Shown piece by piece: positions 3,532 to 45,150 of a DNA stretch of 48,167 nucleotides; the stretch's first letter is position 1; each line of letters starts with the position of its first letter. The notes beneath the pieces are model-generated. The model did not search any database and was not told the origin of the DNA. It saw nothing but the letters and a program-made list of their open reading frames with translations. This DNA comes from a virus. Lineage: Duplodnaviria; Heunggongvirae; Uroviricota; Caudoviricetes. Both the position numbers and the translations under genes were made by a program. The DNA lies in IMG/VR virus record IMGVR_UViG_2721755721_000005; one strand, 5' to 3'.

Positions 3532-3723
3532 TTAAAGACCTGCCGGGATTTCGATATTATCCTGGTGAATAACTTTATCGACCGGGTAACAGTTACCGGG
3601 AATTTTCTGTTCGGTTGCTGCAGTCATACACTCCTGCATTGTCCTGTGAACACTGACTGCAATATCAACTGGCACTCCGGAAACAAGAAAAACTGTCAGA
3701 ACAAGCGCAAATGCTGAATTCAT
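3532..3723 (-). CDS. Hypothetical small protein with N-terminal signal-peptide-like hydrophobic segment
   Basis: Internal ATG (MNSAFALVLTVFLVSG...) overlaps the upstream gene stop in an ATGA arrangement, suggesting translational coupling. Positional analogue of Rac ydaE/kilR; function not assignable. Confidence 0.4.
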   Translation of the reverse strand: MNSAFALVLTVFLVSGVPVDIAVSVHRTMQECMTAATEQKIPGNCYPVDKVIHQDNIEIPAGL

Positions 3724-4013
3724 TGTGCACATCCTTTTGGCATCAGACGTAAACGAGCCAGCATTGAAACAATGCATATTTTATTTAATAGCTCCCGTTC
3801 TTGTTTTCTCTTGTTAATGGCATCTTCAGTAAATACAGGGTTACTGATCGTGACACCAATTTCAAAACAACCTTCAGACGTATTAACGTTTGGTAATAAC
3901 ATTTTCATTATCGCGTCCTCAACAATGAATTTTGTGATGCAGTGCCTGGTGCCTCCAGGTGACGTTAACCAGTTAACAATTAACGTCGGATACAGAGAAT
4001 CCACCCATAACAC
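3720..4013 (-). CDS. Hypothetical early-region protein (start uncertain)
   Basis: 97-aa ORF in the leftward early operon between the exonuclease and the sieB-like gene; coupled to the downstream small ORF. Confidence 0.4.
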   Translation of the reverse strand: MLWVDSLYPTLIVNWLTSPGGTRHCITKFIVEDAIMKMLLPNVNTSEGCFEIGVTISNPVFTEDAINKRKQERELLNKICIVSMLARLRLMPKGCAQ

Positions 4014-4394
4014 TGTTTTTGGTTTTAACTGTTCCGCGTGCGCTTAGCCGCATTCACAGCATCACAAAATTCACTTTAAAAACGGCGGCAGAGCAGTCAC
4101 GGAGTAAAACTGATACCGCCAAACGTCACCAGAAAATTGATAACAGAGGGCGTTGCAGCGGGGTTGTCACTTAAGCGTATGGTCAACCTGACAACTCGGT
4201 GTCCTCAACGGGGAAGGAATAACCCCGCCATACTTACCGCCGCGCCATTTTGCGGGTTGCCACAACCAGAAGCGCACGGTCGAATTAAATTTAACGACAC
4301 CGTACAGTGAGACGAACTTCGCCGTGCGCTTTCGTGTTGTGTGCCTGCTTTTAACCACGTCAGGCGAGGTGGTATCCTTAAAATCACCACAGTT

Positions 4395-4970
4395 TTAAGG
4401 ATTCATTAAGCAATGTCGCAACCACCAATAAATCCGCTTAAGAACATGAAAATTGATTACTGGTATAAAGCGCTTACAGTTGTTGGCGCTGCGTTGTTTG
4501 TCTTTAATGGAACGTCTTTTTTTGACAGATATCCCGTTGTTCCATTGGGTTTTTTGTCCTCCGGCATCTTTTTTATTGGTTTGGGGGAGTGGATTAATCA
4601 CCCTCTCAAAGTGAGATTTATTGGTCCTGGAGTTTGGACTCGTGGATATAATCGTTCTTCGTGCGCACTCGGTATCATCTTCGACATACTTGGTTGTTTC
4701 CTGATTGTTACAGGAGTCGTCAAGTTCTTCTGATGTAAAACCGCAAATGGGGCACGTAACGGGAATTTTGAAAAGCGTTTCTCCGGGTTCCAGAACAAAA
4801 TTTTCTGCGGTCTGATTTTGCTTCTCATATTTGTGCTCCGCGTCATTGTGAGAGCACATTCTTATTCTGAGTGCCTGTTTAAACTCACTGAAGCTGAGAG
4901 CTTCTTCGCCTTCGGCAAGGCCTTCGAAGTATTCTTCGTAAGCCTTTTCCATGATTGTGTCGAAATCCAT
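4395..4970 (-). CDS. Hypothetical protein; only the N-terminal ~79 aa (4734-4970) looks protein-like, the remainder overlaps the plus-strand membrane-protein gene
   Basis: ATG at 4970-4968 overlaps the stop of the upstream 51-aa gene (TGATATG). N-terminal part MDFDTIMEKAYEEYFEGLAEGEE...CPICGF has a CxxC motif; the part antisense to 4413-4733 is low-complexity N/K/R-rich. Confidence 0.3.
   Translation of the reverse strand: MDFDTIMEKAYEEYFEGLAEGEEALSFSEFKQALRIRMCSHNDAEHKYEKQNQTAENFVLEPGETLFKIPVTCPICGFTSEELDDSCNNQETTKYVEDDTECARRTIISTSPNSRTNKSHFERVINPLPQTNKKDAGGQKTQWNNGISVKKRRSIKDKQRSANNCKRFIPVINFHVLKRIYWWLRHCLMNP
4413..4733 (+). CDS. Small membrane protein, about 3 predicted TM helices (SieB-like position)
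   Basis: ATG preceded by AAGGA about 9 nt upstream. Hydrophobic segments ALTVVGAALFVF, GFLSSGIFFIGLG and ALGIIFDILGCFLIVTGVV. Plus-strand gene embedded among minus-strand early genes, as sieB is in Rac. Confidence 0.45.
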   Translation: MSQPPINPLKNMKIDYWYKALTVVGAALFVFNGTSFFDRYPVVPLGFLSSGIFFIGLGEWINHPLKVRFIGPGVWTRGYNRSSCALGIIFDILGCFLIVTGVVKFF

Positions 4971-4971
4971 A

Positions 4972-5127
4972 TCACTCACCTGAGTTTCTTTCCAGCCAGC
5001 GACGGGCACCATTTTCGGTTTTAAACGTTTTGCTTTTGGTATACGTCATCGCGGTGAACGTGCCGTCCTGGTTGGGGAACACGCCACATACCAGAGATTC
5101 GCTGTTGCCAAGATCGATAGTATCCAT
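4972..5127 (-). CDS. Small early protein, 51 aa (YdaF/YdaG-like)
   Basis: Internal ATG at 5127 with GAGG about 6 nt upstream gives MDTIDLGNSESLVCGVFPNQDGTFTAMTYTKSKTFKTENGARRWLERNSGE. First gene leftward of the repressor, as ydaF/ydaG are in Rac. Confidence 0.5.
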   Translation of the reverse strand: MDTIDLGNSESLVCGVFPNQDGTFTAMTYTKSKTFKTENGARRWLERNSGE

Positions 5128-5242
5128 GCTGACCTCATTTCCCCTTAACGCCGGGGTAGCGGAACTGTTTGCTGAGAACACCGTGCGGTGTCTTGATGGA
5201 GGTAATTTAGTTTTCTCATTATTTTTCGTCAAGGTTTTTTGA

Positions 5243-5262
5243 TGAGAAAACTCAAGTATTGG
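5243..5262. promoter_or_regulatory. Operator-like site (OL-type): TGAGAAAACTCAAGTATTGG
   Basis: Near-identical copy of the sequence at 5779-5797 (TGAGAAAACTCAATATTGG), on the other side of the repressor gene. Contains the inverted repeat TTGAG-N4-CTCAA and sits upstream of the leftward early genes. Confidence 0.5.
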
Positions 5263-5319
5263 CGCAAGATAAAGCCAATACATTGAAATGTAAGGCTTTA
5301 AAATTTTGTGAAGGGATGA

Positions 5320-5727
5320 TTATTGATGCTTGTTGCGTTTGCGAGCCTCTAATAGCTCGGTGAACAGGCGATTAAAATTCTCAACGCGGGCGCGGAGTTC
5401 GCTGAGTTGTGCTTGTTGCTCTGATTTAGGAAGTGCGCGATACAAACGCAGCATCTCTAACTCATCTTCCGATAAGTCTAAGGCACTATCGAGTGAAACA
5501 GGGGGAGCTGGTGTTTTGTCCTCGTCGCCAAACAGTATCCAGGTTGGTGAACATTGCAATACCTCGGCGAGGCGATGCAAATTTTGCCCGCGCGGGGCTG
5601 TATGGTCACTTTCCCATAATGAAATTGATGAGCCAGATACGCCAGCAGCTTTGCTTAAACCGTTTTGACTTAAGCCTACCTGCTTACGTCTTTCTCTAAT
5701 GCGTTGACCTAAAGTTTTCTCGTTCAT
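5320..5727 (-). CDS. Prophage repressor, XRE-family HTH (cI/RacR-like)
   Basis: Translation from the internal ATG (MNEKTLGQRIRERRKQVGLSQNGLSKAAGVSGSSISLWE...) has a classic XRE helix-turn-helix; divergent from a Cro-like gene. Confidence 0.8.
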   Translation of the reverse strand: MNEKTLGQRIRERRKQVGLSQNGLSKAAGVSGSSISLWESDHTAPRGQNLHRLAEVLQCSPTWILFGDEDKTPAPPVSLDSALDLSEDELEMLRLYRALPKSEQQAQLSELRARVENFNRLFTELLEARKRNKHQ

Positions 5728-5748
5728 ATTTAGATATCTTAATAACCC

Positions 5749-5797
5749 TTGACTTGAGATTCCTTGAGTGATTAGCATTGAGAAAACTCAATATTGG
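5749..5797 (+). promoter_or_regulatory. Rightward early promoter (pR-like: TTGACT-N18-TAGCAT) overlapped by an operator-like palindrome
   Basis: TTGACT at 5749-5754 and TAGCAT at 5773-5778; operator copy TGAGAAAACTCAATATTGG at 5779-5797 covers the predicted start region, just upstream of the cro-like SD (GGAGG) and ATG. Confidence 0.5.
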
Positions 5798-5804
5798 AGG
5801 TGCG

Positions 5805-6032
5805 ATGTTTAAATCAGACGTAATTAATTTTTACGGTACGAAAGCCAAAGTAGCGAAAGCTGCTGGCGTTGACCCATCTGCTGTTTCTCAATGGCAAGAG
5901 CTGGTTCCTGAAGGTCGCGCGATGCGTCTACAGGAGGCATCTGGCGGCGAGCTTCTGTATGATCCCAAGGTTTATGACGAATATCGTAAGACGAAGCGGG
6001 CGGGGCGGTTGAACAATGAAAATCACTCCTGA
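5805..6032 (+). CDS. Cro/YdaS-like small HTH regulator
   Basis: ATG at 5805 with GGAGG SD; 75 aa (MFKSDVINFYGTKAKVAKAAGVDPSAVSQWQ...), Cro/CI-type HTH, divergent from the repressor. Confidence 0.7.
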   Translation: MFKSDVINFYGTKAKVAKAAGVDPSAVSQWQELVPEGRAMRLQEASGGELLYDPKVYDEYRKTKRAGRLNNENHS

Positions 6033-6537
6033 ACAGGCTCGTGAGGCTCTGGATGCCTGGATATGTCGACCAGGAATGACACAGGAGCAGGCGACGATAT
6101 TAATCACTGAAGCATTCTGGGCTTTGAAAGAGCGCCCGAACATCGATGTTCAGCGTGTCACATATGAAGGTGGCGCGGTTGATCAGCGAGCGCTTAGCGT
6201 TAATCGAGTGAAGATATTCGAACGCTGGAAGGCTATCGACACCAGGGATAAGCGTGAAAAGTTCACAGCGCTAGTGCCTGCAATTATGGAGGCTATCCGG
6301 ATTAGTGATTTCAGGTTGTATCGTGAGATCAGTGATGGAAAAAGTATTACGTACATGATCGCCGGGTTAAATAAAGAATATGGCGATGTGGTGGAATCCG
6401 GACTGCTTTTTGCAGATCCTGCCGTTGTAGATCGTGAAACTGACGAACTTATAGAAAAAGCAATTGCTTTCAAGCTTGCGTATCGACAGCAATACCAACA
6501 AAAAGCTGGATGGAATTATGAGTCTTCTTTTTGCTGA
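6016..6537 (+). CDS. YdaT-like early protein (function uncertain)
   Basis: 173-aa ORF directly after the cro-like gene and overlapping the replication gene start, the position ydaT occupies in Rac. Confidence 0.5.
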   Translation: MKITPEQAREALDAWICRPGMTQEQATILITEAFWALKERPNIDVQRVTYEGGAVDQRALSVNRVKIFERWKAIDTRDKREKFTALVPAIMEAIRISDFRLYREISDGKSITYMIAGLNKEYGDVVESGLLFADPAVVDRETDELIEKAIAFKLAYRQQYQQKAGWNYESSFC

Positions 6538-7949: not shown

Positions 7950-8321
7950 ATTAAAGAGCATTAGTTCAGATATGAATTGACATTTTCATGGCACAGGGTT
8001 GAGCTAGCGTGGTTGTCCGCTTTGTGCCAGTAACGGACGTTTTAAACATTTGTAATCACTAATCCGCGTAGAAAAGATCTCACCGCATAATCAGGCAAAC
8101 ATGCAGGAACATCTGAGGAGTTTTTTCGAGATACGGACAAGGAAAAGCAGCAGAACCTCGTTGAGGCCCTCTCAGGTGGTGCCGGAAAGAGATGTTATGG
8201 TAAATATCGCAGACATAGAGCATTTGAAGTGATATTTAGCATACTTATGCTCTTATTGTAGATTGGCTTTTACCAAATAAGCTTTTTACTACAATGTATG
8301 AACATAAGCCGATTGATCTTT

Positions 8322-9029
8322 TTAGGCAGCAGTCGCTTGCTCACTTCTGCTATCACCAAACATAGTCTGTGCTGCCATGTCAACATCTCCAGATACTGAA
8401 TTCTCGTATCTTCTAATAGCTTCATCTGGCGTTTCGGTAAAGGTTTTTTCAGCAAAAATAATATCTTGTAGTTCGCATATCTTTATTTTCAACTTTCTTA
8501 GGGTGTCACTATCGTTTTTTCCTGTGATCCTCACACAAGCATTAATACGATTAATTATTATTTCTTGGAATATGTTTTTCTTTTCCTCAATTATTCTTCT
8601 AAAAAGAACTATTGTTTTTTCTTTTCCTATAATATCCTCTTCAAGAGGCGCTTTTGCTTTCTCTATATCTTTCTTTGACGCAAACTCATTAAATGCAAAA
8701 GTGGTTATGTAACCTATTATTATAGGAAGGAATGAATAGGAAGTTGGTACTTTTGTTGTTAGGTAGGTTGATATGGCTCCTATGACTATTAATACTGTTC
8801 TTTTATACCAAGGTACAGAGATTATGAATTCGAAAAAACGTGTTATCGCCACATGCATCTTTTGCAAAAGGCAAAGGATTAAAACTACTATAACAACGAT
8901 AATAAGTATCGCAGCAAAACTTGAAGCGACCTCAGTTACTGATGAATTACTATTTTTTTCAGCAGTATAGCTACTTACAGTAGATGGCGTATTGATTTCT
9001 AATTGTTTGTTTTCAATCTCGGTGCCCAC
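8322..9029 (-). CDS. Uncharacterised membrane protein (gene B of a two-gene accessory operon): three predicted TM helices plus a ~110-aa charged C-terminal domain
   Basis: 235-aa ORF with a GTG start 10 nt after the gene A stop. Hydrophobic segments AAILIIVVIVVLILCLL, TVLIVIGAISTYL and FLPIIIGYITTFAF. Strongly AT-rich by eye. Confidence 0.6.
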   Translation of the reverse strand: MGTEIENKQLEINTPSTVSSYTAEKNSNSSVTEVASSFAAILIIVVIVVLILCLLQKMHVAITRFFEFIISVPWYKRTVLIVIGAISTYLTTKVPTSYSFLPIIIGYITTFAFNEFASKKDIEKAKAPLEEDIIGKEKTIVLFRRIIEEKKNIFQEIIINRINACVRITGKNDSDTLRKLKIKICELQDIIFAEKTFTETPDEAIRRYENSVSGDVDMAAQTMFGDSRSEQATAA

Positions 9030-9038
9030 GCTAATCCC

Positions 9039-9509
9039 TTAATCTTTGGCCATTCCTAATTTTTCAAATAATGTCGGTGCTCCAGCTAAAATTGCGGCTA
9101 GCATTCTTAACGAATCACCAGATAAGTTGAGCATCTTTTCATCAACAGCAATCTCTTCTACTGTGAAAACAATCAATGGTGTTTGTTCTTCTTCAATTAT
9201 TGTCGATTTTATTCCTATTGATTTTCTATTAAAATTATTAGCAATGGACAGTAGCGATTGTTTATCTTTGCCTATTTTCATGGCGTTGGTGTTAAAAGAG
9301 TTCATCAGTCTCATTACTATTATTCTAGATGCTACTCTCTTCTCAAGTATTAAATTGACTTCATTGAATTTAAATGCAACCAATTCAAATCCTTCTTCTC
9401 TCTCTAATTCTTTTATATTATTAAACTCACTTATGCTAGATATAATATCTATAAGGCTTTGATTATTTCTCTTTTGTGTTTCGGTTTTTTTCCTTCTTCC
9501 AGAAGACAT
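9039..9509 (-). CDS. Uncharacterised soluble protein (gene A of the two-gene accessory operon)
   Basis: 156-aa ORF with AAGGA SD about 8 nt upstream of the ATG; basic N-terminus (MSSGRRKKTETQKR); no recognisable motif; AT-rich. Confidence 0.6.
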   Translation of the reverse strand: MSSGRRKKTETQKRNNQSLIDIISSISEFNNIKELEREEGFELVAFKFNEVNLILEKRVASRIIVMRLMNSFNTNAMKIGKDKQSLLSIANNFNRKSIGIKSTIIEEEQTPLIVFTVEEIAVDEKMLNLSGDSLRMLAAILAGAPTLFEKLGMAKD

Positions 9510-9560
9510 CTTTTTTCCTTAATGAATTTATGTGTGGTGATAGTATCCAGCTCTAGATAA

Positions 9561-9590
9561 GAAAAAACACCGCTACCAATGGTGTTTTTT
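9561..9590. terminator. Perfect palindromic hairpin flanked by an A-run and a T-run (bidirectional terminator-like)
   Basis: AAAAAACACC-gctaccaat-GGTGTTTTTT, about 50 bp upstream of the gene A start codon. Confidence 0.4.
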
Positions 9591-10537
9591 CAAGGTTCTT
9601 AGAGCTACCAACTTTTTGAACCGTGGTAACTGGCTTTAACGGAGCGCAGTAACCAAAACTGTCTTTTCAGTGTATCTGTAGTTAGGCCGACACTTCAAGA
9701 ATTCTTTGTACTTTCGTGCGTTTACTCGCTCCATAAAACCAGTTACCAATGGTTACCACCATTGGCGATTTATCGTGCCTGTCAAGATTGGGATCAAGAG
9801 AACAGTTACCTAAATTGCTGTGGTAGTCGGGTGGATCGGGGAGTTCGTGCATATAGCCAAGCTTGGATCGCACCACCTTTAAGGAAACCCGTTGTACGGA
9901 AAGGAATGGGAAAACGCGACCTTACGGCGGTCTGCGACGGGTAAACCTCATGGTGGGAACAGGGCACCGCTTTGCTGAGATGCAGGATAGGGCAGACCCC
10001 CGCAAAATGTCGTCATTTGCGGTGTCTGCCCCGAAAACAGAATATTTTTTCCTGAGCCTGCAGCTGGCTCTAAAAACCGCTATCGCCTCACAAAGCTCGC
10101 TGCTTAACGCCTCACGTTCACCCACTAAACAGCGCACCTGTTAACCGTGAATCACGTACAGATTTATCAATATACTTCGCACGTTTACTGCCGGAAATCC
10201 TCCCTTAATTCCCGCATTTGCCCGAAACCGCCCGCCATTCACCCGCGTGCGCAGGCATTCAGATGCGCAGAAATTAGCATGGGTGTTTTTTCACAATACG
10301 GACGGGGAATAGTGCCGGAAACGGGCCGGACGCGCAAAGATCGCGCTGAGTGGGTGCGGCCAGGTCTTGTTGAGTTTAATGTAATAGTAAATCCAGTCTT
10401 TATGAGTGAAACGTCCACTTCTCGCTCATGGCGGCACTTTAGTGGGCCTGTAAAGTGGATGTTGCCAATCAACGATGAGCAAGGCATTCTAATTGCTTGA
10501 GGTGTTTTCGTATAAAATTTAAACAAAAGGAGCAATT

Positions 10538-11887
10538 ATGTCGAGTCTGAGAGATATGGAAGAGCTTATTGGTGATATCGTGGATGTTGAGCTTAAAGAA
10601 TACATGCGAGAAGCACTAATTTGCTATATGACTGGTGCTCATCGAGCATGCGTAGTGCTTTCGTTCATTGCCATCTTCGAGGACTTATTCAAAAAGTTAG
10701 ACGGGATGGCCACTACGAATAGAGTTGCTAAAGCGATCTTTACAGAAATATCCAAGAAAAGAGATGAACAAAAAGTTTACGAAAATGATTTGCTTAATAA
10801 ATTGAAATCTGAAAAAATAATTACAGAGATTGATGCTGACTTTCTCACTGTGTTAAGAACTCTCAGAAATAAAGCTGCACATCCTTCAGGCCATAAACCG
10901 ACAGCTGAAGAAGCTCGATATGTGTATTCAGAAACTATAAATAGATTTCTTTCAAAGCCAGTTCTTTCAACAACTCAAGTTGCCGACCAAATCCTATCTA
11001 AGCTTACCAATTCATACTTATTCCCAACATCTAATATTCAGGACCATGCTATCGTAGTAAATGAGGGTGTTAAAAATCTTCATCATGATGGTTACTCATA
11101 CCTCCTGAAAAAACTCATAGAGTCATTAGACAATGCCAATGAACAAATAAAACTTAATGCAAAAAGATATCTTTTAGGCCTATCTTTTAAACCACTAAAT
11201 AACGATGTTCTTGAGCAAATAAAAAAGCATTTCTTAGTTGAGTGCAGTTCGGATGAAAGTAAAAGACAATGTTTAATGGAATGTATTTCAACCAATGGTA
11301 ATTTGCTAAAAGGTATGGAGGATATTGTTTACTTAAGATTAAATAAAATGTTTGAGGATACAATTTCAACTACAAAATCCTCCGATCAGCATACCTATTT
11401 AAGGCACCCTGTACAGATTGCAATTAGTGTTCTTGGGTTGGAAAGAGAAATTATTGATAGATGCTTTAGATCTAGCATTGATGATGTTCTTGAAAAATAT
11501 AAACTTAGCCCAGTGCTGATGAAGAATATAAAAGGGCATGAGTGGGCTAGACAGAAAGTCATCCAATCAATTTTTGGGCAGGCCGGATCTACAACTTTCT
11601 CTGAAGCTAACACTTTTGCTCAGAGTGTAAATTCATACGATGGTGACATCTCCAGTTTGATGGACAACATAAATTGCTTCGAACTCATTGTTCATATCTG
11701 TGCTGCAGGCAATTGGGGTTCATTTGGAGCTGAAGGTATGATGAAAGGAAAATTCAATAATATCCCTAAAATTAAAGAAAAGGCTGTTAAAGCTCTGCAG
11801 GATAATATCTCTAATTGCCAAGAAATAATTGCAAGAATAAATCCAGCTCTATGTGAAGCAAAGGATTTTGAAGAAAGATATCTTTGA
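10538..11887 (+). CDS. HEPN-domain protein (Rx4H motif, DUF4145/Apea-like) with a ~300-aa uncharacterised C-terminal region
   Basis: 449-aa ORF with AAAGGAG SD. Motif LRTLRNKAAHP (nt 10864-10881), i.e. R-x4-H, in a predicted helical N-terminal domain. AT-rich; divergent from the two-gene operon. Confidence 0.7.
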   Translation: MSSLRDMEELIGDIVDVELKEYMREALICYMTGAHRACVVLSFIAIFEDLFKKLDGMATTNRVAKAIFTEISKKRDEQKVYENDLLNKLKSEKIITEIDADFLTVLRTLRNKAAHPSGHKPTAEEARYVYSETINRFLSKPVLSTTQVADQILSKLTNSYLFPTSNIQDHAIVVNEGVKNLHHDGYSYLLKKLIESLDNANEQIKLNAKRYLLGLSFKPLNNDVLEQIKKHFLVECSSDESKRQCLMECISTNGNLLKGMEDIVYLRLNKMFEDTISTTKSSDQHTYLRHPVQIAISVLGLEREIIDRCFRSSIDDVLEKYKLSPVLMKNIKGHEWARQKVIQSIFGQAGSTTFSEANTFAQSVNSYDGDISSLMDNINCFELIVHICAAGNWGSFGAEGMMKGKFNNIPKIKEKAVKALQDNISNCQEIIARINPALCEAKDFEERYL

Positions 11888-11906
11888 TATTCGTTTTAAA
11901 AATAAC

Positions 11907-11929
11907 AGAGGGAATCAATGACTCCCTCT
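11907..11929 (+). terminator. Weak hairpin terminator after the HEPN gene
   Basis: AGAGGGA-atcaatgac-TCCCTCT followed by TTTAT. Confidence 0.35.
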
Positions 11930-12520
11930 TTATAGGAGTTATTGGGTGGGTTAATATAACGTTTATTCACCATCAATCAACCGCAACCTTAATGGTGTTA
12001 TTTTCAACCGCGAACTTCCGCTTCTCGCTCAAAGCGGACTAAAATGTTGGCTTGCGCCGGACTTTGCGTATTTAAATAAGTGCTGGTGGTGACTGGTTGC
12101 TGTGTTCTATTTCTACAGAACAAAATTACAGAAACTATACCCAATAGTTGTATTGAATCACTGACGAGACAGCCTCATATTTATCAGGACAGGTGTACGT
12201 TCTATACAGGAGGTTGCCGTGCTGGTTCTCAAATGTGCGCTGGCTATTGTGGCTGTAATGGCGATTTATTGTCTTGCCATTATTCTTATGGATCGCCTTT
12301 CTGACTGATTTCATATTGGCGAGGTAACGGGAGTTAAGTAGAATGGCTGCGGGTGCTTGAGGCTGTCTGCCTCGGGCATGAACACCAACGGCAGATAGAG
12401 AAAAGCCCCAGTTAACATTACACGTCCTGCAAGACGCTTAACATTAATCTGAGGCCACATCTATACTTTGCATACGTAGATTAGCCTCTTACCGACCAAA
12501 AGGTCAAAGAGAAGCGGGCT

Positions 12521-12676
12521 ATGAAGCAGCAAAAGGCGATGTTAATCGCCCTGATCGTCATCTGTTTAACCGTCATAGTGACGGCGCTGGTAACGAGGAA
12601 AGACCTCTGCGAGGTACGAATCCGAACCGGCCAGACGGAGGTCGCTGTCTTCACAGCTTACGAACCTGAGGAGTAA
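12521..12676 (+). CDS. hokD: Hok/Gef-family type I toxin (HokD/RelF-type), 51 aa
   Basis: Not in the ORF track (under 60 aa). Translation MKQQKAMLIALIVICLTVIVTALVTRKDLCEVRIRTGQTEVAVFTAYEPEE has the Hok pattern: one TM helix plus the conserved RK.LCE.R...EVA.F.AYE periplasmic tail. Confidence 0.85.
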   Translation: MKQQKAMLIALIVICLTVIVTALVTRKDLCEVRIRTGQTEVAVFTAYEPEE

Positions 12677-12892: not shown

Positions 12893-13144
12893 ATGATGAA
12901 CATCGAAGAACTGCGTAAAATTTTTTGTGAAGATGGCCTCTATGCTGTGTGCGTTGAAAATGGAAATCTTGTTAGTCATTACCGCATTATGTGTTTGCGA
13001 AAGAATGGGGCTGCGTTAATTAATTTTGTGGATAGTCGAGTGACAGACGGATTTATCTTGCGCGAAGGTGAGTTTGTCACTTCATTACAGGCACTGAAAG
13101 AGATCGGAATAAAAGCAGGCTTTTCAGCTTTTGCAGAAGAATAA
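12893..13144 (+). CDS. Small hypothetical protein (Rem-like position, 83 aa)
   Basis: 83-aa ORF between hok and the DUF968 gene, the position of rem in Qin; identity is by position and length only. Confidence 0.45.
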   Translation: MMNIEELRKIFCEDGLYAVCVENGNLVSHYRIMCLRKNGAALINFVDSRVTDGFILREGEFVTSLQALKEIGIKAGFSAFAEE

Positions 13145-44569: not shown

Positions 44570-45150
44570 TGGCATTCAGAATGAGTGAACAAGCACGGAC
44601 CATAAAAATTTATAATCTGCTGGCCGGAACTAATGAATTTATTGGTGAAGGTGACGCATATATTCCGCCTCATACAGGTCTGCCAGCAAACAGTACCGAT
44701 ATTGCACCACCAGATATTCCGGCAGGCTTCGTGGCTGTTTTCAACAGTGATGAGGCATCGTGGCATCTCGTTGAAGACCATCGGGGTAAAACGGTTTATG
44801 ACGTGGCTTCCGGCGACGCGTTATTTATTTCTGAACTCGGTCCGTTACCGGAAAATGTTACCTGGTTGTCGCCGGGAGGGGAATATCAGAAGTGGAACGG
44901 CACAGCCTGGGTGAAGGATACGGAAGCAGAAAAACTGTTCCGGATCCGGGAGGCAGAAGAAACAAAAAACAGCCTGATGCAGGTAGCCAGTGAGCATATT
45001 GCGCCACTTCAGGATGCTGTAGATCTGGAAATCGCAACGGAGGAAGAAATCTCGTTGCTGGAAGCCTGGAAGAAGTATCGGGTGTTGCTGAACCGTGTTA
45101 ATACAACAACTGCACCGGATATTGAATGGCCAGTAGCACCTATAGGGTAA
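44569..45150 (+). CDS. tfa: Tail fibre assembly protein Tfa
   Basis: [43 protein letters not shown]... lambda Tfa-like; ATG overlaps the stf stop. Confidence 0.9.

Follow-up and report, generated by a model that had tools for sequence, protein, structure and literature searches.

In the prophage described here near-identical, operator-like sequences lie on either side of the repressor gene, which raises the questions of whether they are the operators of an immunity switch, which protein they would serve, and whether the two regions might be bridged by a DNA loop. We report that the stretch of DNA that was analysed (48,167 nt; "the window") is a full-length Qin-type lambdoid prophage of E. coli and that the repeats, judged from the sequence, are very probably the operators of a P22/Qin-type immunity switch. 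The prophage carries structural and lysis genes (RefSeq annotation of the identical region), whereas K-12 Qin is a remnant, and its chromosomal site adjoins ydfJ, which is the same site as that of K-12 Qin. The region is present at a coverage of at least 80% in approximately 800 of 5426 complete E. coli genomes, and it is 99.5% identical to the phage record HannyBb and 98.9% identical to mEp460_ev081, a functional temperate phage (PMC10448788). The H1 genome record, which was the source of the annotation, does not run parallel to the window over its full length; up to approximately 13 kb its coordinates are borne out by independent results (rem at 12893), and the operator map uses the left-end annotation only. 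The relevant genes are as follows.

5320 to 5727, minus strand: repressor gene (DicA homologue), 135 aa
5805 to 6032, plus strand: cro gene (DicC/P22 Cro homologue), 75 aa
3720 to 5127, minus strand: operon controlled by pL, ydfA-ydfB remnant-DicF-dicB (RefSeq annotation of the identical region)
4972 to 5127, minus strand: ydfA, member of the pL operon
4083 to 4134, minus strand: DicF RNA (Rfam DicF, 72.5 bits)
3720 to 3908, minus strand: dicB, member of the pL operon
6016 to 6537: gene for a YdaT-like, CII-like protein
12893 to 13144, plus strand: rem, homologue of the Qin antirepressor gene (tblastn, 96% identity to K-12 Rem over 83 aa)

The repressor and cro genes are separated by an intergenic region of 77 bp, and a Pfam DUF1391 match was found within the pL operon. 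K-12 Qin has the same order and orientation of a cro-like gene, a gene for a 135-aa repressor, a leftward promoter and ydfA-ydfB-DicF-dicB-ydfD, and it also carries a rem antirepressor gene on the prophage; its dicA-dicC-dicB immunity locus is reportedly known from the work of Bejar and co-workers.

The 135-aa repressor is 57% identical to K-12 DicA, with a conserved C-terminal half and the differences located in the helix-turn-helix domain. Its helix-turn-helix domain (residues 1-70) resembles that of P22 C2 and is joined by a linker to a C-terminal hairpin of two helices. The domain search identified Pfam HTH_3 (E 2e-15) and the N-terminal domain matches PDB 1adr (E 8e-16), while the identity to P22 C2 is 47% over residues 1-72 and nothing aligns beyond residue 72. 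In the monomer structure model (pLDDT 86.7) the C-terminal helices cover residues 87-98 and 101-134; using Foldseek, the N-terminal domain of the model was placed on the P22 C2-operator complex 3jxb with an rmsd of 0.9 Å over 67 columns, and the whole model gave loose matches to SinR (1b0n) and arbitrium-phage repressors. A RecA-cleavable (LexA/S24-like) C-terminal domain is absent from the repressor, which has only 135 aa and two C-terminal helices in the model. The Cro protein belongs to Pfam P22_Cro (E 3e-16) and is 70% identical to K-12 DicC and 47% identical to P22 Cro.

In the region between the repressor and cro genes we mapped or predicted the following features (sites without a strand are given as such).

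5776 to 5793, no strand: OR1, cATTGAGAAAACTCAATa, centre 5784.5
5752 to 5769, no strand: OR2, degenerate candidate site, ACTTGAGATTCCTTGAGT, centre 5760.5, 24 bp from OR1
5727 to 5744, no strand: OR3-like palindrome, TATTTAGAT/ATCTTAATA, centre 5735.5, 25 bp from OR2
5749 to 5778, plus strand: predicted pR (dicC promoter equivalent), TTGACT, 18-nt spacer, TAGCAT
5737 to 5765, minus strand: predicted repressor maintenance promoter, AAGGAA (5765-5760), 17-nt spacer, TTAAGA (5742-5737)

OR1 corresponds to the right copy of the sequence-only reading. It has perfect 6-bp arms flanking an AAAA centre, adjoins the -10 of pR and, in alignments, falls on Oc of K-12 Qin and on the OR1 annotated in P22. 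The right copy had been placed over both the pR start and the cro Shine-Dalgarno sequence; it does cover the start predicted by the promoter scan (approximately 5785), but the operator core ends 4 nt before the Shine-Dalgarno sequence. The TATTGG tail that the right copy shares with the left one was rejected as part of the site, since the left-site tail is not conserved in relatives; the right-site tail belongs to the Shine-Dalgarno region of cro. The promoter scan detected only two sigma-70-like sites in 4900-6100, one at 5749-5778 (plus strand) and one at 5232-5204 (minus strand), and each has an operator over or beside it. In all relatives the -35 of pR is invariant and a TAnnnT hexamer adjoins OR1, and the layout of pR matches that of the annotated P22 promoter.

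OR2 overlaps the -35 of pR as well as the -35 of the predicted repressor promoter. It combines one conserved yTGAG half-site with a conserved run, wTTCCTTG, aligns with the annotated OR2 of P22 (ACTAAAGATTCCTTTAGT) and is kept in relatives although the linkers vary. The OR3-like palindrome is an inverted repeat that adjoins the repressor start codon, overlapping its first base, covers the -10 of the predicted maintenance promoter and aligns with OR3 of P22. The maintenance promoter is assigned by homology only: it matches its annotated P22 counterpart hexamer for hexamer, and its predicted start (approximately 5730) would give a leader of approximately 3 nt without a Shine-Dalgarno sequence. 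The mapped 5' end of the P22 maintenance RNA lies 4 nt before the c2 start codon (P22 annotation).

On the other side of the repressor gene the features are as follows.

5240 to 5257, no strand: OL2, the left copy of the sequence-only reading, tGATGAGAAAACTCAAGt, centre 5248.5
5204 to 5221, no strand assigned to the site: OL1, a third copy, minus-strand sequence AATGAGAAAACTAAAT, centre 5212.5 (motif hit 5205-5220)
5204 to 5232, minus strand: predicted pL (dicB promoter equivalent), TTGACG, 17-nt spacer, TAAATT, predicted start approximately 5197
5270 to 5300, minus strand: RNA hairpin just past the repressor stop codon, -11.3 kcal/mol, z-score -3.46

The copy search revealed a third copy at 5205-5220 on the minus strand, which the sequence-only reading had overlooked. 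OL1 is inverted relative to OL2, has one mismatch to the motif in the copy search and is an inverted repeat with imperfect arms; it overlaps the -10 of pL. OL2 is located 8 nt upstream of the -35. Hence the left copy does lie upstream of the leftward early genes as proposed, more precisely upstream of the pL -35, but it is the third copy and not the left one that sits over the -10. The left region aligns with OL1/OL2 of P22 and with the dicB promoter region of Qin, such that OL1 pairs with P22 OL1 and OL2 with P22 OL2 (TTTGAAGAAAACTTAAAT). The two sites are 36 bp apart here and 35 bp apart in P22, and over all lineages, P22 among them, this distance stays within 34-36 bp. The relatives and K-12 Qin retain both pL hexamers (promoter scan and alignment). 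An OL3 was sought at the P22 position, approximately 29 bp beyond OL2; no motif was found there, and the conserved hairpin at 5270-5300 is present instead. None of 200 shuffles folds as well as this hairpin, which is a sequence island conserved in relatives and is not operator-like; it may serve to end the repressor transcript before pL or to stabilise it. The consensus fold of the leftward 5' leader contains conserved hairpins, almost without compensatory changes.

Could the repeats be a by-product without a DNA-binding role, either chance similarity of AT-rich DNA or RNA hairpins? The region is AT-rich, the site centre is a plain A-tract and the right palindrome could fold, as RNA, into a 5-bp hairpin, all of which would fit such an origin. 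The shuffle tests, however, speak against chance. Comparing the non-coding stretches 5128-5319 and 5728-5804, the longest word common to both is the 13-mer TGAGAAAACTCAA (5243-5255 and 5779-5791), and a shared word of 13 nt was reached in one of 2000 dinucleotide-preserving shuffles. The near-identical sequences reported on either side of the repressor gene are thus both in place with the 13-mer exact; past it the two copies diverge by a one-base indel. The inverted repeat TTGAG-N4-CTCAA had been assigned to both copies: it is perfect in the right one, but the left one reads ATGAG-AAAA-CTCAA and its arms are therefore only 4 bp.

Moreover, a weight matrix built only from 19 sites of other genera was used to scan the whole 48-kb window. 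The three best scores were obtained for OR1 at 5777-5792 (27.2 bits, the maximum possible), OL1 at 5205-5220 on the minus strand (24.5 bits) and OL2 at 5241-5256 (19.8 bits), with 11.7 bits as the best score outside these sites and the OR3-like palindrome. The scores of OR1 and OL1 exceed those of all 30 whole-window shuffles, while OL2 is borderline on score alone because 19.8 bits was equalled by one of the 30. The OR3-like palindrome scores 12.1 bits, the fourth-best value in the window and within noise when taken alone. That of OR2 is low (below noise), and its function is accordingly suggested by position only. OR2 and OR3 are conserved and located at the P22 positions, yet as repressor sites their scores do not rise above noise. 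Within codons 2-5 of the repressor gene the core recurs a fourth time (GAGAAAACT at 5713-5721, minus strand); this copy was rejected as a site, as it scored 7.0 bits and relatives have other codons there (MNEM in Buttiauxella, MNKK in L074).

The clustering of TTGAG half-sites to the left of the right copy was confirmed in part. The four TTGAG/CTCAA half-sites at 5754-5791 form the densest cluster of the window (at least four within 40 bp occurred in 2 of 300 shuffles) and the one at 5754-5758 is kept as yTGAG, but the one at 5764-5768 is not kept and reads TTGCG, TTGCC or TTGAA instead of TTGAG in relatives. As to RNA hairpins, the sites have no common RNA structure because the arms of OL1 are imperfect and its orientation is opposite, and the right hairpin would not be fully transcribed because the predicted rightward start falls inside the palindrome. 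The sites are also conserved across genera while their flanks diverge. Taken together, the by-product explanation is extremely improbable and close to refuted.

Conservation was studied in seven lineages having the same recognition helix, S-[GDE]-SS-[IV]-SLWESD: a 96%-identical E. coli variant, two Buttiauxella, Salmonella, C. koseri, Klebsiella and Enterobacter. Every one of them retains OR1, and six retain OL1 and OL2, with diverging flanks and spacers; these relatives are not fully independent because of shared descent, and promoter elements overlapping the sites could account for part of the conservation. The exception is Klebsiella, where the left region has been displaced by an inserted gene and the sites were not recovered. 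OR1 is invariant in the Buttiauxella, Salmonella, C. koseri, Klebsiella and Enterobacter relatives, TGAGAAAACTAA within OL1 is invariant in relatives, and OL2 is conserved. A scan of viral contigs gave only near-identical copies and added little beyond the 96% variant.

Four other helix classes have different palindromes at the same positions, and within each phage OR and OL are matched. Specifically, the K-12 type palindrome is TTGTTAGTyATrACTAACAA and that of the PPompW type is CCTTAGGAAAATCTAAGG, while the classes SYATISLWESD and SHATISLWESD have one common consensus, TTGTTrAG...AACAA. Over the five classes the site sequence shifts with the recognition helix of the repressor, and it does so at OR and OL together. 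The Cro recognition helix (SAVSQW) is nearly constant among classes A, B and C but their OR1 and OL sequences differ, and because of this the sites track the repressor and not Cro.

This bears on the alternative that the sites are bound mainly by another regulator, either Cro (the DicC homologue) or the YdaT-like, CII-like protein, and that the repressor acts elsewhere. In lambdoid phages Cro also uses the operators of the repressor, and the OR3-like palindrome is unchanged or almost unchanged in every relative belonging to classes A, B and C, which have a common Cro helix. In Rac, YdaT footprints cover three 18-bp sites in the racR-ydaS intergenic region (PMC11879457). Against this, OR1, OL1 and OL2 vary with the repressor helix while the Cro helix is nearly constant (A compared with B and C), the YdaT box TTGATT-N6-AATCAA is missing from the whole window with two mismatches allowed, and the homologous Oc of K-12 is bound by DicA in vivo. 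We therefore regard binding mainly by another regulator as very unlikely, and the OL/OR arrangement for a cI-like repressor put forward by the sequence-only reading is supported by the protein homology, the alignment of sites with Qin and P22 and the co-variation with the recognition helix.

How does the locus compare with known systems? In K-12 Qin, DicA binds Oc (TTGTTAGTCATAACTAACAA), and single-base changes in Oc abolish binding in vivo (PMC3441716). DicA bound at Oc represses dicC and activates dicA (PMC3441716, Yun et al. 2012), while Om and Oa of K-12, the counterparts of OR2 and OR3, are not bound by DicA in vivo (PMC3441716). DicA also represses the dicB promoter, and Rem relieves this repression (PMC10448788, Ragunathan and Vanderpool 2023). 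As in Qin, the operator is found at the same position downstream of the rightward -10, and two sites 35-36 bp apart flank the leftward -35. However, the recognition helices of both the repressor and Cro differ from those of K-12, and the sequence at the Oc position is ATTGAGAAAACTCAAT here and TTGTTAGTCATAACTAACAA in K-12. Because the operators differ (ATTGAG-AAAA-CTCAAT compared with TTGTTAGTCATAACTAACAA) this prophage and K-12 Qin should be heteroimmune; by sequence, the two represent the same locus family with different specificity.

The likeness to immC of P22 (c2, cro, OR1-OR3 and OL1-OL3) extends from the proteins, where the N-terminal domain of the repressor and Cro are each homologous at 47% identity, to the OR region, which can be aligned hexamer for hexamer, with a TTGACT -35 and with OR1 and the candidate OR2 and OR3 at the positions of the three 18-bp P22 sites approximately 24 bp apart, and to the (here predicted) nearly leaderless maintenance transcript. 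In both, OL1 covers the -10, OL2 precedes the -35, and the sites have 5-bp arms and a 4-bp centre, TTAAG-N4-CTTAA in P22 and TTGAG-N4-CTCAA here, such that the third base of the half-site differs. P22 differs in that C2 has 216 aa and a RecA-cleavable C-terminal domain while the present repressor has a two-helix C-terminal domain, in having an OL3, and in that gene 24 (N-like) follows the leftward promoter in place of the dicBF operon.

From homology and conservation we infer how such a switch would work. A dimer of the DicA-family repressor most likely occupies 18-bp sites with the pattern ATTGAG-AAAA-CTCAAT. Bound at OR1, at the -10/start of pR, it would silence cro, the ydaT-like gene and the replication genes, and bound at OL1 over the -10 of pL and at OL2 upstream of the -35 it would turn off the ydfA-DicF-dicB operon. 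By analogy with Qin, occupancy of OR1 probably also stimulates the weak promoter of the repressor gene itself, giving the nearly leaderless transcript. OR2 and OR3 would be weaker sites that complete a three-part OR with the 24- and 25-bp spacing seen in P22, and Cro probably represses the maintenance promoter through OR3. Since Om and Oa of K-12 are not bound by DicA in vivo, the three parts may not all be repressor sites. Because the repressor is without a RecA-cleavable domain, induction is expected to proceed through the Rem antirepressor, which is likely to act as the inducer here; a search of the window for a perfect LexA box (CTGT-N8-ACAG) gave no hit. The Gifsy and Fels prophages of Salmonella have short non-cleavable repressors under the control of antirepressors (PMC10448788), and as described there they resemble the present prophage in combining a small repressor lacking a RecA cleavage site with a small antirepressor on the same prophage.

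The sequence-only reading further raised repressor-mediated looping, in which the repressor bound at OL and at OR would interact across 536-572 bp and loop out its own gene. Such a loop would act on top of local repression, making repression or autoregulation tighter, and the idea extends the operator explanation and does not replace it. In lambda, CI forms an octamer-mediated OL-OR loop over 2.3 kb. The present locus shares with lambda the divergent repressor and cro genes, the putative three-part OR and a motif repeated at the leftward promoter beyond the repressor gene, while the separation is shorter (approximately 2.3 kb in lambda) and the C-terminal domain shows no relationship to those of CI and P22 C2. 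Each region has at least two sites (OR1 and the weak OR2; OL1 and OL2), which would favour looping. The C-terminal helical hairpin of the model and its loose matches to SinR, which forms tetramers, and to arbitrium-phage repressors point in the same direction.

The distance between OR1 and OL2 can be read both ways. It is short and fairly constant within one helix class (class A; 533-536 bp, and 546 bp in one case) despite differing gene length and spacers, but a gene of fixed length simply explains a constant distance. Outside class A the distances are 510-515 bp (classes B to D), 549 bp (PPompW) and 784 bp (P22), and over all classes they have no common helical phase; one Klebsiella lineage has a gene inserted between the repressor and the left region. 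Looping is consequently a tentative addition that we consider rather unlikely. Still less likely is a combined version, in which the two C-terminal helices bridge OL and OR (a loop of approximately 535 bp) and specificity is split, with OR3 following the Cro helix. In that case OR1, OL1 and OL2 would follow the repressor helix and OR3 would be common to phages with differing repressors; if true, such phages would be heteroimmune for repression and cross-reactive for Cro-mediated anti-immunity.

The preferred reading of the locus, by sequence comparison, is thus a heteroimmune immunity region of the DicA/P22 type. Its layout is that of an ordinary, long-known phage switch and our understanding of phage switches is unchanged by it; the site sequence is new, and a full-text literature search gave no match to the operator sequence. 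Our data provide a defined operator sequence and a site map for one common Qin-like immunity type, which includes mEp460_ev081 and HannyBb. Together with the four other helix classes it makes up a naturally occurring set in which repressor helices and operators are paired on the P22 C2 scaffold, and this set could serve studies of helix-turn-helix specificity or the design of orthogonal repressors.

We report that the repeats flanking the repressor gene of this E. coli Qin-type prophage are best supported as operators of a standard lambdoid switch. The immunity region has identical counterparts in many E. coli chromosomes (99.5% identity to phage HannyBb and 98.9% to mEp460_ev081), and its layout is that of the Qin immunity locus (dicC / dicA / dicB promoter / ydfA-ydfB-ydfC-dicF-dicB); the prophage appears full length, in contrast to Qin.

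Features of the immunity region and its surroundings
Left of 3532: integrase, excisionase and exonuclease genes
3532-3723, minus strand: ydfD
3720-3908, minus strand: dicB
4083-4134, minus strand: DicF RNA (Rfam, 72.5 bits)
4869-4970, minus strand: ydfB remnant
4972-5127, minus strand: ydfA
5204-5221: OL1, third copy of the repeat
5232-5204, minus strand: predicted leftward promoter, TTGACG-17-TAAATT
5240-5257: OL2, left copy
5320-5727, minus strand: repressor gene (135 aa)
5749-5778, plus strand: predicted rightward promoter, TTGACT-18-TAGCAT
5776-5793: OR1, right copy
5805-6032, plus strand: Cro-like gene
6016-6537, plus strand: YdaT-family gene
Right of 6518: replication genes

The interval from the ydfB remnant to DicF contains, on the strand opposite the operon, an unannotated 106-aa hydrophobic ORF (4413-4733, plus strand), which may be an inserted accessory gene; in K-12 Qin its place is occupied by ydfC. 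Further to the right, a 3.8-kb block (8200-12000) holds a full-length Rfam RNAI match (9559-9661, minus strand, 68.4 bits, E 4e-12), two hypothetical genes and a DUF4145 gene. Approximately 1 kb of DNA flanking RNAI resembles ColE1-type small-plasmid origins (68-78% identity, with matches in >5000 plasmid records), and no phage record matched it at megablast level. Among 5426 complete E. coli genomes only 35 carry the block, 30 times at a chromosomal place and 6 times on a plasmid. It has the appearance of an integrated small plasmid or plasmid cargo, lying between the prophage replication genes and hokD. A full-length match to the Rfam family IS009 (44912-45110, plus strand, 229 bits) is located near the right prophage-chromosome junction, inside the truncated ydfJ region.

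Both strings quoted in the sequence-only reading (5243-5262 and 5779-5797) are present and have in common the exact 13-mer TGAGAAAACTCAA (5243-5255 and 5779-5791). The motif TTGAG-N4-CTCAA had been ascribed to each: the right copy (5777-5792) is indeed a perfect palindrome, ATTGAG-AAAA-CTCAAT, with 6-bp arms and an A-tract centre, but the left copy, GATGAG-AAAA-CTCAAG, lacks the perfect form. The additional TTGAG half-sites were recovered (5754-5758 and 5764-5768), and a third, inverted copy that had been overlooked lies at 5205-5220 (inverted repeat I1; minus-strand sequence AATGAGAAAACTAAAT).

The repeats exceed chance expectation. The non-coding stretches 5128-5319 and 5728-5804 have a longest common word of 13 nt, a length reached in only one of 2000 dinucleotide-preserving shuffles, and the densest TTGAG/CTCAA cluster in the window (four half-sites, 5754-5791) was matched in 2 of 300 shuffles. 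The strongest of the chance tests used a weight matrix trained on 19 sites from other genera only and none from the window; its best scores in the 48-kb window were at 5777-5792 (27.2 bits, the maximum possible), 5205-5220 (24.5 bits) and 5241-5256 (19.8 bits), and the top match beyond the immunity region, 11.7 bits, was within noise. The shuffles, the conservation, and OL1 itself, inverted and with imperfect arms, all but rule out an origin by chance or through RNA structure. Binding of the sites by a YdaT-type regulator is unlikely, since no YdaT-box was found in the window with two mismatches allowed.

The two promoters listed are the only sigma-70-like sites within 4900-6100. OR1 adjoins the rightward -10 and, as had been proposed, covers the predicted start, while OL2 lies upstream of the leftward promoter, 8 nt from its -35; it is the third copy, OL1, that overlaps the leftward -10. 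The leader of the leftward (dicBF) transcript (5130-5200, minus strand) carries blocks that are conserved across genera in all DicA-type loci, i.e. CATCAA, a hairpin ACACCG..CGGTGT (elsewhere AATCAC..GTGATT), GTTCCGC and a second hairpin CCCC..GGGG. They are candidates for an antitermination element resembling nut or put, or for a processing signal; the consensus fold showed little compensatory change. Directly 3' of the repressor stop codon is an RNA hairpin (5270-5300, minus strand; -11.3 kcal/mol, z-score -3.46). Buttiauxella and C. koseri retain its core TTTCAATGT, and it may serve to end the repressor transcript ahead of the leftward promoter or to make that transcript more stable; in K-12 Qin a different hairpin occupies this position.

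The region was aligned with the annotated P22 record, and the rightward part matches element by element, with site centres 25 and 24 bp apart in the window compared to 24 and 24 bp in P22.

Rightward elements in the window and in P22
Site adjoining the repressor start codon: window TATTTAGATATCTTAATA (5727-5744); P22 OR3 AGTTAAGTCATCTTAAAT
Rightward -35: window TTGACT; P22 TTGACT
Middle site: window OR2 ACTTGAGATTCCTTGAGT (5752-5769); P22 OR2 ACTAAAGATTCCTTTAGT
Site at -10/start: window OR1; P22 OR1

On the left, OL1 and OL2 of P22 align with those of the window (OL2 is TTTGAAGAAAACTTAAAT in P22 and GATGAGAAAACTCAAGT here), and the OL1-OL2 spacing is 34-36 bp across every lineage examined, P22 included. 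The P22 maintenance promoter is AAGGAA-17-TTAAGA, with a mapped RNA 5' end 4 nt before the start codon; since its counterpart in the window has the exact hexamers AAGGAA/TTAAGA (5765-5737, minus strand), the repressor transcript is predicted to be nearly leaderless, which fits the lack of a Shine-Dalgarno sequence.

An experimental anchor is provided by K-12 Qin, where the 20-bp inverted repeat Oc (TTGTTAGTCATAACTAACAA) occupies exactly the position of OR1. The Qin region was recovered in high-copy clones only with single-base Oc changes, and an in vivo operator assay demonstrated DicA-dependent repression via Oc that was abolished by one base change (PMC3441716). With DicA at Oc, dicC is repressed and dicA activated, and no binding was seen at the adjacent sites Om and Oa (PMC3441716). 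DicA also represses the dicB promoter, which is relieved by the Qin-encoded antirepressor Rem, and the DicA/DicC pair shows bistable switching (PMC10448788).

Species-representative genomes, viral contigs, phage records and public assemblies supplied DicA-family loci, which were grouped by repressor recognition helix. Loci with the helix of the window repressor (class A, S-[GDE]-SS-[IV]-SLWESD) comprise a 96%-identical E. coli variant, two Buttiauxella species, Salmonella, Citrobacter koseri, Klebsiella and Enterobacter. In all of these OR1 is yTGAGTTTTCTCAA, and in those whose left region was recovered OL2 reads yTGAGTTTTCTCAw and OL1 reads TGAGAAAACTAAA, with minor variants in Enterobacter; divergence is seen in the flanks, in the linkers and in the spacer around the -35 (alignments A2 and A3). 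Other helix classes have different palindromes at the same positions, with OR and OL matched within each phage.

Operator consensus sequences of other helix classes
K-12 type: helix SHVSVSQWERGD; operator TTGTTAGTyATrACTAACAA
PPompW type: helix AHVTISQWERDE; operator CCTTAGGAAAATCTAAGG
Two further classes: helices SYATISLWESD and SHATISLWESD; one common operator, TTGTTrAG...AACAA

Since classes A, B and C hardly differ in the Cro recognition helix (SAVSQW) but do differ in OR1 and the OL sites, OR1 and OL follow the repressor and not Cro. The OR3-like palindrome (5727-5744, TATTTAGAT/ATCTTAATA) is common to the three classes and resembles P22 OR3, which hints at a Cro-preferred site common to otherwise heteroimmune phages. 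Together, promoter overlap, alignment with P22 and Qin Oc, and site-helix co-variation support the proposed OL/OR-type repressor operators at the level of sequence.

The repressor shares 57% identity with K-12 DicA, with a conserved C-terminal half and differences in the helix-turn-helix domain, and Cro is 70% identical to DicC, its recognition helix again differing. Residues 1-72 of the repressor are 47% identical to P22 C2, and its structure model (pLDDT 86.7) can be superposed at 0.9 Å on C2 in complex with its operator (3jxb). Judged from the model and comparison with P22 C2, the C-terminal part is a linker and two helices and not a RecA-cleavable domain. No perfect LexA box was found across the whole window. 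A Rem homologue (12893-13144, plus strand; 96% identity to K-12 Rem) adjoins a hok/sok module (hokD/sok, 12351-12676), with gene order as in Qin.

In the proposed switch, repressor dimers on OR1 would block the rightward promoter, and dimers on OL1 and OL2 would shut off the leftward promoter, thereby silencing DicF and DicB. OR2 and OR3 would be weaker sites, with roles (cooperative filling, autoregulation, Cro binding) modelled on P22 and lambda, and induction would probably occur via Rem instead of RecA cleavage. OL-OR looping by the repressor is a possibility. In the window, OR1 is 536 bp from OL2 and 572 bp from OL1, and the OR1-OL2 distance is 533-536 bp in class A (546 bp in one lineage), 510-515 and 549 bp in other classes and 784 bp in P22; however, these OR1-OL2 distances have no common helical phase, and their constancy is accounted for by a fixed-length gene. 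No paper in the searchable literature was found to give the operator sequence of this immunity type; descriptions of the arrangement exist for Qin and P22, and the operator sequence is the new part.
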